DNA from: Promethearchaeum syntrophicum
Lineage (GTDB): Archaea; Asgardarchaeota; Lokiarchaeia; Sigyniarchaeales; Promethearchaeaceae
Length of the DNA: 32,000 nucleotides
Direction: 5' to 3'
NCBI RefSeq assembly: GCF_008000775.2
Contig: NZ_CP042905.2
Span: 2,490,001-2,522,000, forward strand
This document shows positions 21,786 through 29,207 of this stretch, in pieces; within the stretch, counting starts at the first letter, position 1, and each line of letters starts with the position of its first letter. Both the position numbers and the translations under genes were made by a program. The notes below the pieces were generated by a model. The model searched no databases. It was given only the letters and a program-made list of their open reading frames with translations, and had not been told where the DNA came from.

Positions 21786-21878
21786 GGCTCCGAGCGGTCA
21801 GAGTGGTCTTTGACGCCGGACTTCAAATCCGGTCTATCCTCAAACGATTGGGGGTTCGATTCCCCCTCAGAGCCGCCA
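21786..21878 (+). tRNA. tRNA-Sec (anticodon UCA), archaeal/eukaryal 9/4 fold, genomically encoded CCA
   Basis: Manual fold. Acceptor 21786-21794/21866-21874: 9 bp with one C-A mismatch. D stem 21797-21803/21808-21814: 7 bp including one G-U, with 4-nt loop TGGT. Anticodon stem 21815-21820/21828-21833: 6 bp including one G-U. Loop CTTCAAA gives anticodon TCA. Variable arm 21834-21850: 17 nt. T stem 21851-21854/21862-21865: 4 bp with loop TTCGATT. Discriminator G21875 and CCA 21876-21878. TATAGTAA at 21761-21768 lies about 25 nt upstream. Confidence 0.9.
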
Positions 21879-22179
21879 AAATCCGACTCAATTTGTTTCA
21901 TAGGTTTGCTCCAAAATATTATAGCTGTGGTCATTTAATAAGACTTATTTTAATTTTTTTTTTTAACAACAAGTTTCTTCCATTTTTAAGGCAAATATTG
22001 GATATATAATCATAGATTTTCCACAAAATGAAAAATTTAATCCAAATAATTTAAATTTTGAATCTATCCTATTCTTTGATATTCACCCAATATCTCCTAA
22101 AATTGATAATATTTTTTCAACTCAATTTGATTACTAAATAGTACTAATATTTATTTGATTGTAATTACATTGTAATTAT

Positions 22180-22434
22180 ATGGAAGTCATAAAAACAAAA
22201 CTTATTCAAATTGGAAATTCTAAAGGAATCCGAATACCGAAACACATTTTGGAACGTCTGAACCTACAAAATAAAATAGAACTTATAATTGATGATAAAA
22301 TCAATCAAATTCACATTAAATCAATCGAGACTCCCCGAAAGAATTGGGAAGATGCTTTTCAAAAAATGCATGAAAACCGAGATGATGATCTTTTAATTGA
22401 TGATGGAATTGACTTAGATGCTTTGGATTGGTGA
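22180..22434 (+). CDS. mazE: AbrB/MazE/SpoVT-type antitoxin
   Basis: N-terminal LIQIGNSKGIRIPKHILERLNL swapped-hairpin motif. 84 aa. Immediately upstream of a PemK/MazF gene. Confidence 0.85.
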   Translation: MEVIKTKLIQIGNSKGIRIPKHILERLNLQNKIELIIDDKINQIHIKSIETPRKNWEDAFQKMHENRDDDLLIDDGIDLDALDW

Positions 22435-22470
22435 GTAAAAATTCCTTGGCATAAAATCAAACAATATTCT

Positions 22471-22773
22471 GTGTATTTATTGAATTTAGATCCTACAGTA
22501 GGACATGAGATAAAAAAAACTAGACCATGTGTGGTAATATCTCCAGATGAGATGAATAAACATTTAAAAACAATTATTATTGCTCCTATGACTACTAAAT
22601 CTCAAGACTATCCAACCAGAATCAAAATAAAATTTGCAGGAAAAATGGGATGGTTAGTTGTCGATCAAATCCGTACAGTTGATAGAATACGATTTGTTAA
22701 AAAGATGGGAACAATTAGTTCAAGTTCTATTAAAGAGCTAAAAAAAAAGGTTCAAGAAATGTTAGTAGATTAA
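22471..22773 (+). CDS. mazF: PemK/MazF-family endoribonuclease toxin
   Basis: LNLDPTVGHEIKKTRPCVVISPDEMN...IIIAPMTTK is the family signature. The GTG start gives a slightly short N-terminal strand. No other canonical start lies between the mazE stop and 22471. Confidence 0.85.
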   Translation: MYLLNLDPTVGHEIKKTRPCVVISPDEMNKHLKTIIIAPMTTKSQDYPTRIKIKFAGKMGWLVVDQIRTVDRIRFVKKMGTISSSSIKELKKKVQEMLVD

Positions 22774-22790
22774 TAGATGAAGATGTTTAT

Positions 22791-22807
22791 GTCCGACAAA
22801 GTCGGAC
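22791..22807 (+). terminator. Perfect 7-bp hairpin (GTCCGAC AAA GTCGGAC) followed by TTT, after mazF and 10 nt before att-like repeat 1
   Basis: Read directly. It could be a terminator or part of a recombination site. Its 3' arm plus flank (GTCGGACTTTAA) resembles the tRNA anticodon arm (GCCGGACTTCAA). Confidence 0.35.
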
Positions 22808-22817
22808 TTTAAGAAAT

Positions 22818-22837
22818 ATTCCCCCTCAGGACCGCCA
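22818..22837 (+). repeat. att-like direct repeat 1: copy of the tRNA-Sec 3' end
   Basis: ATTCCCCCTCAGGACCGCCA versus tRNA 21859-21878 ATTCCCCCTCAGAGCCGCCA, 18/20 identical. Confidence 0.8.
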
Positions 22838-26538: not shown

Positions 26539-26732
26539 AATAATGATTAATTGTGAAGAATTAAAAAACCTATATGTATTTAATCTCTCTTATTTAATTC
26601 ATTGTAAATATTCTGACTGAATAATTAAGGTTTTTCGATTAGAGTATTTTTTCATTCCATTCCTCTAAATTAGAATTAATAAAGAAAATAAAGATTTTTT
26701 ACTTTATCTCCGAAATGACGCGCTTAAATATA

Positions 26733-26753
26733 GATTCCTCTTCAAAGCCACCA
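26733..26753 (+). repeat. att-like direct repeat 4: degenerate copy of the tRNA-Sec 3' end
   Basis: GATTCCTCTTCAAAGCCACCA versus GATTCCCCCTCAGAGCCGCCA, 17/21 identical. Confidence 0.55.
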
Positions 26754-26826
26754 TGAAACATTTCATTTAAAAAACTAACTCCTTAGATCATTAAATTTTA
26801 ATTATATTTTTTTTTTTAAAAGAAAA

Positions 26827-27234
26827 ATGAATGATATGCCAGATCCATTAGCTTCTATTAAAAATTTGGAAAATATAGAATTTAAATCTTTGATTGCATA
26901 TCTTAAGGAGGTTCTAGCTGTTTCACAGATCAGTTGTGGATATTATGATGATAAAACTTGCAGGATTTAATTAATAATCGATATTGATCATGAATTAGTA
27001 TGGAAGGTAGTTCAAGAATTTGGGTACGTGTTGAATTATGTCTCATTATCTGAACAATTGCCTACAATCTTTAAACAAGTATCACCTCCAACTTACATGA
27101 ATGGAAGTCCGGGAGAGTTTTTATCTTAGGTTATAGAAACTACCGATTCAAAATTTACTCCTGATCTGATAAGAGAATGGTTGTAGGGAAGATTACCTCG
27201 GAGTGGAACAATCGTGATTAATCCAAATATTTGA
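26827..27234 (+). pseudogene. Decayed gene remnant: one reading frame of 136 codons from the ATG to a terminal TGA at 27232, interrupted by three earlier in-frame stops
   Basis: Frame from ATG 26827 reads MNDMPDPLASIKNLENIEF...CRI*LIIDIDHELVWKVVQEFGYVLNYVSLSEQLPTIFKQVSPPTYMNGSPGEFLS*VIETTDSKFTPDLIREWL*GRLPRSGTIVINPNI*. Internal stops are TAA 26968, TAG 27127 and TAG 27184. That is far fewer stops than expected for non-coding DNA this AT-rich. Confidence 0.35.
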
Positions 27235-27435
27235 TATTATTAATTTTTACGAAATAGCAGAAATCTATAAACATTTTAAGTTCAAATAGATAAATAAAAA
27301 ATAAAAGGTTGTGAATAAATTTAATGAAATGGAAATAATTTATTCGTTATAATCTGATTTTTAAAAAATTGGATTTCTTCAGTAAAAATTTCGAAGTATC
27401 CAAAAAATTAATGAATTAAAAGGAAATGAATTTTT

Positions 27436-29055
27436 ATGAGAAAAGTAAATAAAATTTTACTTATTATAATGTCAATTTTAATTGTGAGCTCACTTGTTAT
27501 AGTTTTGATCTTTTTCCCTCCATGGGGAACCGAAAATAGTGATACTACTGACCCAACAATTGAGATTACAAGCCCAATTGATGCAGCAGTTTATTATAAT
27601 GCATCACAATTGTTAAATATTACAGCTGAAGATAATATTCAAATTGATAATATCTGGTATAATTGGGATGGTTCAAATGTAACATACAACATTCCTGTTT
27701 CTATTATATTTAATGTAGGCACTAATACCATTAATGCATGGACAAATGATACTGCGGGTAATGTAGCTACAACATCTGTTACATTTACTATCGTAGAAGT
27801 TTTCACTTCAACATGGAATACATCAAAAATAAGCATAGGTTCCAGCAATAATGATCAAATAAGGTTACCTTTGGAACCATCTGGAATCTATAATTTCTTC
27901 GTTGATTGGGGGGATGGTTCAAGTAACACGATTACAGCTTGGAATCAAGCAGAAATAAATCATACTTATCCATCTCAAGGGCAATATACAATTACAATAA
28001 ATGGAACAATTAAAGGGTGGAGATTTAATAATGAGGGAGATAGACTGAAGTTACTCAAAATTACTCAATGGGGTAATTTAAGTCTGGGAAACTCTGGTAG
28101 TTATTTTTATGGATGTGAAAACCTAAATATTACTGCTAGTGATATCTTGAATTTAGATGGTACAACCAATCTATATGCGATGTTTGCTGGATGTTTTACT
28201 ATTGAAGAAATTCCGAATATGGGCTTATGGGATGTCTCAAGCGTGATAAATATGGTTGGATTGTTCGCGGCTGCGCCCAATTTCAATCAAGATATAGGTA
28301 ATTGGGATGTCTCCAATGTAACAGATATGCGATCTATGTTCGAAAGTGCATCATCATTTAACCAAGATATTGGGAATTGGGATGTCTCTGGTGTAACAAA
28401 TATGAGTTATATGTTTTTTGAGGCTGAAGCATTTAATCAATTCATAGGTAATTGGGATGTCTCTGGTGTAACTACCATGGATGCTATGTTCGATCAAGCG
28501 ATTGTCTTTAATCAATCACTTGAAAACTGGAATGTCTCACGTGTCACGAATATGAGAATTATGTTCTCTCGTGCAGAAGCTTTCAATCAAAATATAGGAA
28601 ACTGGAATGTTTCACGGGTAACCGACATGGAATTTATGTTTAGTAATGCATACAATTTCAACCAAGATATAGGTAATTGGGATGTTTCAAGTGTTGCAAA
28701 TATGATGTGTATGTTCTCTCATGCAAACAATTTCAATCGGTCAATAGGAAACTGGGATGTTTCAAGTGTTACAAATATGTTAGGTATGTTCTTATATGAT
28801 ACAGATTTCAATCAAAATATTAGTAATTGGAATGTCTCCAGCGTGACAAGCATGGATAATATGCTTAATGGAACTTCCTTTTCAACCAACAATTATGATA
28901 GTTTGTTAATTGAATGGTCGCAATTACCCTTACAATCAGGTGTAACCTTTTCTGCAGGTAATACAAAATATACATCTGGTGGAAATGCTGAGGCGGCTCG
29001 AATAGTCATTGAAGGTAAAGGTTGGATCATCCAAGACGGTGGACCATTAATTTAA
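27436..29055 (+). CDS. BspA-type / DUF285 repeat surface protein with N-terminal signal-anchor and Ig-like domain
   Basis: N-terminal hydrophobic anchor ILLIIMSILIVSSLVIVLIFF. VDWGDGS...HTY...G.YTITING module. Then about 11 repeats of 25 aa with consensus FNQDIGNWDVSxVTxMxxMF. Confidence 0.9.
   Translation: MRKVNKILLIIMSILIVSSLVIVLIFFPPWGTENSDTTDPTIEITSPIDAAVYYNASQLLNITAEDNIQIDNIWYNWDGSNVTYNIPVSIIFNVGTNTINAWTNDTAGNVATTSVTFTIVEVFTSTWNTSKISIGSSNNDQIRLPLEPSGIYNFFVDWGDGSSNTITAWNQAEINHTYPSQGQYTITINGTIKGWRFNNEGDRLKLLKITQWGNLSLGNSGSYFYGCENLNITASDILNLDGTTNLYAMFAGCFTIEEIPNMGLWDVSSVINMVGLFAAAPNFNQDIGNWDVSNVTDMRSMFESASSFNQDIGNWDVSGVTNMSYMFFEAEAFNQFIGNWDVSGVTTMDAMFDQAIVFNQSLENWNVSRVTNMRIMFSRAEAFNQNIGNWNVSRVTDMEFMFSNAYNFNQDIGNWDVSSVANMMCMFSHANNFNRSIGNWDVSSVTNMLGMFLYDTDFNQNISNWNVSSVTSMDNMLNGTSFSTNNYDSLLIEWSQLPLQSGVTFSAGNTKYTSGGNAEAARIVIEGKGWIIQDGGPLI
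28057..28881 (+). repeat. Tandem 75-bp coding repeats (about 11 units, the last 9 well conserved) inside the DUF285 gene
   Basis: Period of 25 aa between successive FNQ.IGNW motifs at aa 283, 308, 333, 358, 383, 408, 433 and 458. GGTAATTGGGATGTCTC recurs at the DNA level. Confidence 0.9.
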
Positions 29056-29190
29056 AAATTTAACATTTATTGAAATTTGGATGATTTTTTCTGCTTTTTT
29101 TCATTTCCTCTTCATGCTTTTTTTCCCTCTCTATTATTTCTCCTTGTACTATTCAATCTGTCTGCATATTGTCAAAAAAGAAGGAAGCTG

Positions 29191-29207
29191 CCCCCTCAGA
29201 GCCACTA
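29191..29207 (+). repeat. att-like direct repeat 5: partial copy of the tRNA-Sec 3' end, putative distal island boundary
   Basis: CCCCCTCAGAGCCACTA versus tRNA CCCCCTCAGAGCCGCCA, with 13 nt exact and 15/17 overall. A GC-rich 13-mer in an AT-rich intergenic region. Confidence 0.6.

Follow-up and report, generated by a model that had tools for sequence, protein, structure and literature searches.

An array of small gene units bounded by copies of the tRNA-Sec 3' end in the Asgard archaeon Promethearchaeum syntrophicum

How does a string of small gene units come to lie behind a single tRNA gene, each unit ending in a copy of that gene's own 3' end? A 32-kb stretch of the genome of Promethearchaeum syntrophicum strain MK-D1 raises this question (we call the whole analyzed stretch the window, and positions are window coordinates unless a related locus is named). 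Its sole tRNA gene, that for selenocysteine (tRNA-Sec; + strand, 21786-21878 by ARAGORN, to 21874 by Rfam), matches RF01852 with 56.9 bits against a gathering score of 47. The gene has the anticodon TCA and encodes its CCA, and in the Rfam alignment it folds with a 9-bp acceptor stem and a 4-bp T stem; this 9/4 fold is of the archaeal/eukaryal type. The first-pass annotation, made from the sequence alone, had described an array of small gene cassettes downstream of this tRNA and had read it as the footprints of repeated site-specific integration by units that carry no recombinase. That reading is upheld by empty sites, by breakpoints at the CCA and by different arrays in relatives, and we argue that serial integration at the tRNA-Sec 3' end, later modified by imprecise deletion, is the probable origin of the array.

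The repeated sequence is the 21-mer GATTCCCCCTCAGAGCCGCCA (21858-21878, + strand), which comprises the 3' half of the T-loop, the 3' strands of the T and acceptor stems, the discriminator base and the CCA. We refer to it as the att core. A scan of both strands of the window returned five copies besides the tRNA itself, with 2-4 mismatches: copy 1 at 22817-22837 (3 mismatches), copy 2 at 24929-24949 (2), copy 3 at 25772-25792 (4), copy 4 at 26733-26753 (4) and copy 5 at 29187-29207 (4, with a degraded 5' end). As had been noted before, all five lie downstream of tRNA-Sec in the same orientation (+ strand), and no additional match appeared on either strand of the 32 kb even at six or fewer mismatches. 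Successive copies are spaced 959, 2112, 843, 961 and 2454 bp apart, in accord with the 0.96, 2.1, 0.84, 0.96 and 2.45 kb given by the first-pass annotation. The intact tRNA-Sec is the attL side of the array, and five attR copies are retained in 7.3 kb of MK-D1.

These copies stand well above background. Not one of 300 first-order Markov simulations of the window yielded a match at four or fewer mismatches, and the chance expectation in a pattern search was 0.00 for window matches at three or fewer. A general repeat search of the window recovered the same repeat family without prompting (D3/D4), and a sequence-only covariance model built from the copies found only these sites, at E ≤ 0.003, in 95 kb comprising the window and related loci. 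One further att-like sequence, TGTGCCCCTTTTGAGCCTCCA at 30333-30353 (7 mismatches, 17 bits), lies within a conserved pyridoxal phosphate (PLP)-dependent enzyme (PALP) gene; its score is just over the 95% null level and under the null maximum of 24 bits, and we set it aside as chance. The G+C content of the array (0.25-0.35) is the same as that of its surroundings.

Where the homology to the tRNA begins and ends is informative. It starts within the 7-nt T-loop, at ATTCC, GATTCC, CGATTCC or TTCGATTCC, and its 3' limit is the CCA without exception; in the copies of three related loci (L130, L132 and L145; L-numbers denote related loci, mostly metagenome contigs) it covers the whole T arm. Tyrosine recombinases reportedly use a T-loop class of tRNA integration sites, with strand exchange in the T-loop, and homology that runs from the T-loop to the CCA fits this class. 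Beyond the CCA, the extension TTATTGT/TTATTTT that had been seen on repeats 1-3 is present on those three copies. We also considered the copies as retroelement primer-binding sites, that is, as minus-strand complements of the tRNA 3' end including its CCA. This idea was rejected because there is no reverse transcriptase and no consistent position of copies relative to genes, and because the empty sites described below fit integration.

Pfam and open reading frame (ORF) analysis agree with the gene content first read from the sequence: mazEF, an NSUN methyltransferase, a DUF4442 protein, a zinc-ribbon membrane protein, and a pseudogene with a DUF285 protein. Unit 1 (21879-22837, + strand) is a mazEF toxin-antitoxin (TA) pair, with mazE at 22180-22434, mazF at 22471-22773 and copy 1 trailing; it is a type II pair by its MazE (PF04014, 1.5e-5) and PemK toxin (PF02452, 5e-29) matches and by the 36 nt between the genes. 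A hairpin, GTCCGAC-AAA-GTCGGAC at 22791-22807, closes the unit 10 nt 5' of copy 1. TCCGACT at 21882-21888, 3 nt past the tRNA CCA, opens it, so that a 7-bp inverted repeat lies at the unit ends; in the related locus L134, TCCAACT occupies the same left position. This terminal repeat could be a terminator, a protein-binding site or chance.

The second segment is composite. Its left part, a remnant that we call unit 2a (22838-23339, + strand), consists of a non-coding left-end module, X (22838-23198), and a stretch Y (23199-23339). Unit 2b (23340-24949, − strand) encodes an NSUN/RsmB-type RNA 5-methylcytosine (m5C) methyltransferase (gene 23418-24863; Pfam Methyltr_RsmB-F, 1e-40) and ends in copy 2. 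Two Logan contigs over the locus (run DRR199588) end ~30 nt apart at ~24777-24808, within the 5' part of the NSUN gene, where there is no att copy; this break could be a graph branch from a culture variant or reflect low coverage. Unit 3 (24950-25792, + strand) holds a gene for a DUF4442 hotdog-fold protein (25237-25701; Pfam 5e-22) and copy 3, and unit 4 (25793-26753, − strand) a gene for a 145-aa zinc-ribbon membrane protein with CxxC motifs and a weak zinc-ribbon match (26101-26538) and copy 4. Unit 5 (26754-29207, + strand) contains a pseudogene (26827-27234), a gene for a DUF285/BspA-like surface protein (27436-29055) and copy 5. The pseudogene spans 136 codons with in-frame stops TAA, TAG and TAG and no frameshift, and Pfam assigns it to no convincing family (best match DUF4116, E = 0.11). 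Gene orientation across the array alternates +, −, +, −, +. The five cassettes of one or two coding units originally proposed need amendment: the small, att-bounded units stand, but they number six or more, with the pair in the second segment fused.

Relatives show the same locus in other states. In L123, a 31-kb contig from the ENA, the core genes are syntenic with MK-D1 at 83-86% DNA identity, and the NTF2-like protein is 83% identical. The L123 tRNA-Sec has its own downstream copies, at L123 positions 7561 (5 mismatches), 5937 (0), 4828 (1) and 3769 (5), with weaker candidates in spacers at 2497 and ~1020. These separate Caroten_synth+TetR, NSUN, a SAP-domain protein, FMN_red, a DUF6036 set and vapBC+mazEF, giving an array of six or more units whose content is unlike that of MK-D1. 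In L134, a more distant locus with 78% identity in core sequence, a mazEF unit lies right after the tRNA; its left end, AAATCCRACT, is the same as in MK-D1.

Direct comparison of junctions reveals insertion polymorphism. L123, L135 and L146 carry an empty site for the mazEF unit, in which the tRNA CCA abuts TTCTTGTCTGCTAAAT; in these three loci the CCA is directly followed by TTCTTGTCTGCTAAATAATTATTCTC, and the MK-D1 equivalent, TTATTGTCTGCTAAATAATTATTCTC, lies behind copy 1. Because the same sequence follows the CCA in relatives and copy 1 in MK-D1, the 959-bp mazEF unit together with copy 1 is an insertion in MK-D1, or was precisely excised in the relatives. At this same position between the tRNA and X, L137 carries a different pair of units: one of 757 bp that includes a glyoxalase-like gene, and one of ~345 bp. 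Both empty sites and different cassette content, which the first-pass annotation had suggested looking for in related genomes, are thus present, and no relative was seen to carry the same genes without the repeats. Right-hand junctions behave likewise: in MK-D1, L123 and L140 (JGI Ga0311296_1644128) an att copy terminates the NSUN unit, and exactly from the CCA on the unit's neighbor is DUF4442 in MK-D1, the SAP protein in L123 and a PEMT-family gene in L140. The PEMT gene in turn has an att copy at a distance of 35-100 nt in each of MK-D1, L140 and L145, and the gene on the far side of that copy differs each time. Overall, homology between the genomes stops exactly at the CCA of the copies.

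A metagenome scan with an exact 20-mer identified four more tRNA-Sec genes, each with a different following sequence, and five low-GC contigs with exact copies outside any tRNA, beside single accessory genes. One of these contigs (L129) has two copies spaced 717 bp, with a ParE-type toxin pair between them, and others carry CYTH, Imm44 and acyltransferase genes. Distant MazF homologs (70-73% identity; L141-L143) have neither tRNA-Sec nor att copies and are uninformative. TA pairs are frequent in the arrays (mazEF, vapBC, ParE-type, DUF7557+PIN) and, by analogy with large integron arrays, may stabilize them. In L129, an ISAzo13-family transposase gene (2750-3148) starts right after an exact att copy, and insertion sequences therefore also land in these arrays.

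Unit sizes are rather uniform. To the MK-D1 spacings given above, of which 2112 bp represents the fused segment, can be added 2236, 1624, 1109, 1059, ~1270 and ~1480 bp in L123, 717 bp in L129, 851 bp in L132, 1269 bp in L146, and the 757 and ~345 bp of L137. Where both ends are defined, sizes range from ~0.35 to 2.5 kb; the bulk of the units measure 0.7-2.5 kb, and most are near 1 kb.

The units also have histories separate from that of the core genome. We measured silent divergence between MK-D1 and L123 as the share of identical-amino-acid codons that differ. Five core genes gave 13-32%, the NSUN gene 6.4%, about four times below the core genes, and mazE and mazF 37-42%, above them. At the DNA level the NSUN unit is 96-97% identical among MK-D1, L123, L140 and L146, and mazE of L134 is 95% identical to that of L123, against 78% for the core sequence of the two. 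Divergence of NSUN and mazEF is decoupled from that of the core genome, and the units have therefore been exchanged between Promethearchaeum lineages independently of it; they are common to several of these lineages.

Not every change at the locus respects the att copies. Among MK-D1, L123 and L146, module X (361 bp) keeps an identity of 91-93%, and the 192 bp of it available in L137 are 88.5% identical; in every case X begins directly after a CCA, and the cargo behind it varies. X of MK-D1 is 93% identical to the sequence directly behind the tRNA in L123, where Caroten_synth, TetR and an att copy come next. Behind the L146 tRNA lies a match to window positions 22818-23335 (X+Y, 91% identical to L146 260-776), and after it come a 232-aa ORF with an att copy and then the NSUN unit. 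This ORF and its att copy are missing from MK-D1, where X is followed by Y (140 bp) and then by the NSUN unit, with no att copy between. X and Y being joined to NSUN without an att copy, the segment 22838-24949 represents two units fused by deletion. L146 has in turn lost the att copy after NSUN, so that NSUN joins mazEF directly. Imprecise deletions thus also shape the array. X itself has no Pfam match, and we rejected it as a structured RNA, given z scores of +1.1 and 0.0, no compensatory changes and no Rfam match.

What enzyme could have made these junctions? The first-pass annotation had seen no recombinase, and we found none: Pfam and PHROGs searches detected no recombinase domain in the scanned ORFs of the window (the array ORFs and most other larger ORFs), six of the larger ORFs of the window having no match of any kind in either database. 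The array spacers contain no ORF longer than 52 aa, except for a short frame overlapping the tRNA, and their six-frame translation gave no Pfam match. Spacer ORFs and six-frame Pfam searches of the spacers revealed no split int(N)/int(C) halves at the att borders, and the MK-D1 array yielded no integrase remnant by small ORFs, by six-frame Pfam, by Pfam on the pseudogene or by PHROGs. Nor did Pfam find an integrase or a fragment of one in the scanned part of the array genes and larger ORFs of relatives (~35-40 kb recovered from nine or more lineages). A large integrase-bearing element spanning the region, which had been named as a possible refutation, is not present within the 32 kb. Units 1, 3, 4 and 5, and several units in L123, L129 and L132, are accordingly att-flanked and without recombination or mobility genes. 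No IntI-type integrase adjoins the insertion site, upstream of which lie NTF2/SnoaL-like, CAAX protease and aldo-keto reductase genes; in L134, L140 and L128 the upstream neighbors of tRNA-Sec differ.

Our search for a cognate element reached beyond the arrays. An autonomous element with the same att site and an integrase was found neither in viral contigs nor in phage and plasmid collections nor in short metagenome contigs. The viral scans with the att core and with the NSUN protein gave a single contig match, at 65% GC, which we attribute to chance, and the 3' half of the tRNA, compared by BLAST with phage and plasmid collections, matched generic T-arm sequences only. In a genome-collection scan with the tRNA-Sec anticodon arm CCGGRCTTCAAAYCCGG, bacterial tRNA-Sec genes dominate among the matches listed. 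One study reports a higher average copy number of integrase-domain gene families in Asgard genomes (PMC13247210). Any enzyme acting on the units is presumably encoded in another part of the genome or by a helper element.

We conclude that the array probably arose by serial site-specific integration at the T-loop and 3' end of tRNA-Sec, followed by imprecise deletion. In this model the 21 terminal nt of tRNA-Sec, which run from the T-loop through the CCA, would serve as the attB core of a site-specific recombinase, most likely a tyrosine recombinase. Circular DNA with the same core would recombine within the T-loop; the incoming copy would then restore the tRNA, and the former 3' end would be pushed to the far side of the insert as attR. 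Repeated rounds would stack units such that the newest adjoins the tRNA, after which the copies would drift (2-4 changes per 21 nt) and imprecise deletions would fuse or truncate units. Each unit would carry one or two genes, oriented either way and driven by promoters of their own, with several TA pairs among the units, and an enzyme encoded outside the examined sequence would act on them from elsewhere in the genome or from a helper element. Tyrosine-recombinase elements of archaea and bacteria are documented to form arrays when a single att site is used repeatedly (PMC6563490; PMC8371274; bioRxiv 10.1101/2020.12.28.424599).

Several observations weigh against serial integration as the full account. 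Because no recombinase was identified in the sequence examined, the enzymatic step is entirely inferred, and scans of viral contigs with the exact and the degenerate core turned up no free attP-bearing element, nor anything else relevant. Copies farther from the tRNA are not consistently more degenerate (3, 2, 4, 4 and 4 mismatches, in order). FMN_red in L144 and L123, and mazEF in MK-D1, L123 and L146, are alike over the gene region only and not at their ends; att-independent recombination therefore contributes to the movement of material as well. Finally, the order in L140 (positions 1-1300, read in tRNA orientation) is NSUN unit, perfect att copy, PEMT gene on the minus strand, 72 nt, and an intact tRNA-Sec that is divergent (90% identical overall, with the 3' end GATTCCCGTCGGAGCCGCCA). 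An att copy and PEMT gene 5' of tRNA-Sec are not predicted by simple serial integration.

Two other loci resemble L140 in falling outside the simple scheme. L144 has a second att copy on the other side of PEMT, the side where L140 has the whole tRNA-Sec, followed by the start of X and then FMN_red. In L134 (439-2389), the aldo-keto reductase gene is separated from tRNA-Sec by two mechanosensitive-channel genes. MK-D1 has these channel genes beyond the array, ~3-5 kb past the right end of the window (L002 3984-5931), with unchanged orientation and a core-like identity of 78%. The tRNA-Sec locus has thus been rearranged on a larger scale between lineages, and the three cases suggest either such larger rearrangements or that whole copies of tRNA-Sec sometimes accompany array material.

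If integration built the array, did the units arrive at their present size? They could instead be decayed remnants of larger integrated elements (proviruses, plasmids or cryptic elements), each once equipped with its own integrase and whittled by deletion to a few genes plus attR, a form of "gene capture" as in She et al.; the small units would then never have been mobile as such. We regard this as possible although rather doubtful. Loss of the integrase after integration, and tandem integration at one locus, are described in archaea (PMC8371274), and decay is evident here in the cargo ORF and att copy that MK-D1 lost between Y and the NSUN unit, in the att copy lost after NSUN in L146, and in the pseudogene inside unit 5. 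However, no integrase fragment was found in the ORFs and spacers of the MK-D1 array or in the scanned arrays of relatives, and perfect or near-perfect copies flank intact single-gene units of 0.7-1.1 kb (L123 5937/4828, with 0 and 1 mismatch; L129), tidy flanks that would need fast, tidy deletion every time. Unit sizes, moreover, bunch near 1 kb rather than being broadly spread. The perfect copies around intact ~1-kb single-gene units and the missing integrase fragments are two points that favor movement at present size, while the deletions keep the derivation from larger elements alive.

A bolder proposal is that a true cassette-capture system operates in Promethearchaeum with the tRNA-Sec 3' end as its fixed point of insertion. 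Units of ~1 kb, each a gene plus att, would be cut out as circles and put back by a dedicated recombinase encoded elsewhere. We think this unlikely, and equally so its corollary that the system would be a functional analog of an integron, with a tRNA-derived site instead of attC, driving gene exchange between lineages. In extension of this proposal, as L140 and L134 suggest, the tRNA-Sec gene itself would at times move with the array. The array does resemble integron arrays in its polar ~1-kb single-gene units that each end in a recombination site, its one proximal insertion site, its TA cassettes and its fast turnover; integron cassette arrays have reportedly been found in archaeal metagenome-assembled genomes. 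Unlike integrons, it has no IntI beside the insertion site and no attC hairpins, its repeat being a tRNA 3' end that mostly lacks a pairing partner, and its genes run in both directions and hence share no common promoter. By its missing IntI, missing attC and mixed gene orientation, the array is not an integron.

Could the array instead be a fossil, with its att copies out of use, that now varies by homologous recombination with the DNA of relatives or by illegitimate recombination? The conserved tRNA and flanking genes would then act as anchors, as in flexible genomic islands. The multi-unit block from X to NSUN, which has the same order in MK-D1, L123 and L146 at 91-97% identity, looks like block transfer, and several rearrangement joints lie away from att copies. 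Against this, four independent joints fall exactly at the CCA of copies (tRNA to X, copy 1 to X, and the NSUN att copy with its three neighbors), perfect copies beside different cargo imply recent attR formation, and homologous recombination would probably not favor a repeat as short as 21 nt; we consider a fossil array quite improbable. That the repeats are chance or a dispersed short motif unrelated to the tRNA, for which nothing speaks beyond their shortness (21 nt) and the degeneracy of some copies, is refuted by the five copies observed where 300 simulations gave none, by their restriction to one strand and to the downstream side of the tRNA, by the same pattern at the orthologous tRNA in relatives, and by the lack of other copies in the window and in the 95 kb of window and related loci.

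A literature search found no paper describing this locus. We compared it with known systems. The closest described picture is that of Prochlorococcus islands, where tycheposons integrate at a tRNA and push older elements inward, leaving partial tRNAs between and behind the elements, and fragmented integrases (Hackl et al., bioRxiv 10.1101/2020.12.28.424599, later in Cell 2023). These islands are likewise tRNA-adjacent, with older partial tRNAs and accessory cargo that varies among close relatives. Possession of an integrase and a replication module defines a tycheposon, and in most islands no element is intact (bioRxiv 10.1101/2020.12.28.424599). The MK-D1 locus differs in showing no integrase trace in the examined array sequence, in its ~1-kb units, in its Asgard host and in its tRNA-Sec target.

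Archaeal elements with tyrosine recombinases insert themselves into tRNA genes, build arrays by repeated use of the same site, and can lose their integrase (PMC8371274; PMC6563490). Those of Thaumarchaeota are complex, 2.6-98 kb in size and integrase-defined (PMC6563490), and the "gene capture" of She et al. 2001 is reviewed in PMC8371274. Capture of the Sulfolobus spindle-shaped virus (SSV) type, by a "suicidal" integrase, leaves split int(N)/int(C) at the borders; the MK-D1 array shows none, and the locus is not of this type.

Structurally, the units fit the definition of cis-mobilizable elements (CIMEs): att-flanked, without recombination genes, and stacked by accretion. CIMEs and tandem accretion are reportedly known from the ICESt1-type islands of Streptococcus, and CIMEs would be mobilized in trans by the integrase of a related element. 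CIMEs, however, derive from and occur with a known cognate integrative and conjugative element, whereas the MK-D1 units are smaller, more numerous and without a known cognate element. Bacterial selC and ssrA, the tRNA-Sec and tmRNA genes, are said to see similar traffic, with 3'-end fragments marking tandem islands. There, too, one gene is re-used as an integration site and several 3'-end fragments remain; bacterial islands of this kind are large and usually keep an integrase, in contrast to the MK-D1 array, which lies behind an archaeal-type tRNA-Sec in an Asgard lineage.

The sequences on either side of the array complete the picture. The first gene past the last copy encodes a PEMT/ICMT-family methyltransferase (29304-30011, − strand; Pfam) and may be the original downstream neighbor of the tRNA or an older unit; the PLP-dependent enzyme is also encoded on this side. 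The genes upstream of the array are core metabolic, and those upstream of tRNA-Sec encode aldehyde:ferredoxin oxidoreductase (AOR), HdrA/MvhD-like and HdrB/C-like proteins, ferredoxins, an aldo-keto reductase, a CAAX protease and an NTF2/SnoaL-like protein. Synteny between MK-D1 and L123 stops at ~15800 of the window, ~200 bp upstream of a TPR/CCG-domain gene; past this point, L123 has ubiquitin-like system genes for JAB, E2 (UQ_con) and E1 (ThiF) proteins (L123 15109-19060), and MK-D1 has the HdrA/MvhD/AOR cluster. Farther away, six consecutive minus-strand genes at 21-8368 encode proteins of 224, 1347, 333, 238, 273 and 319 aa without a Pfam or PHROGs match, except for a weak aspartyl-protease match in the last (319 aa).

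MK-D1 is one of very few cultured Asgard archaea, and gene acquisition in these organisms is almost without experimental knowledge. The general kind of process is already known; the Asgard host, the tRNA-Sec target, the small and uniform units and the lack of any integrase trace in the array sequence examined set this locus apart from the Prochlorococcus islands. The locus is compact and well delimited, and gene gain is visible in it at the resolution of single units with known junctions. If the units do not move as such, the array is a clear archaeal example of island-building as in Prochlorococcus and Sulfolobus. If they do move at their present size, it would represent an integron-like mode of capturing genes that is built on a tRNA site, among the cultured organisms most closely related to eukaryotes.

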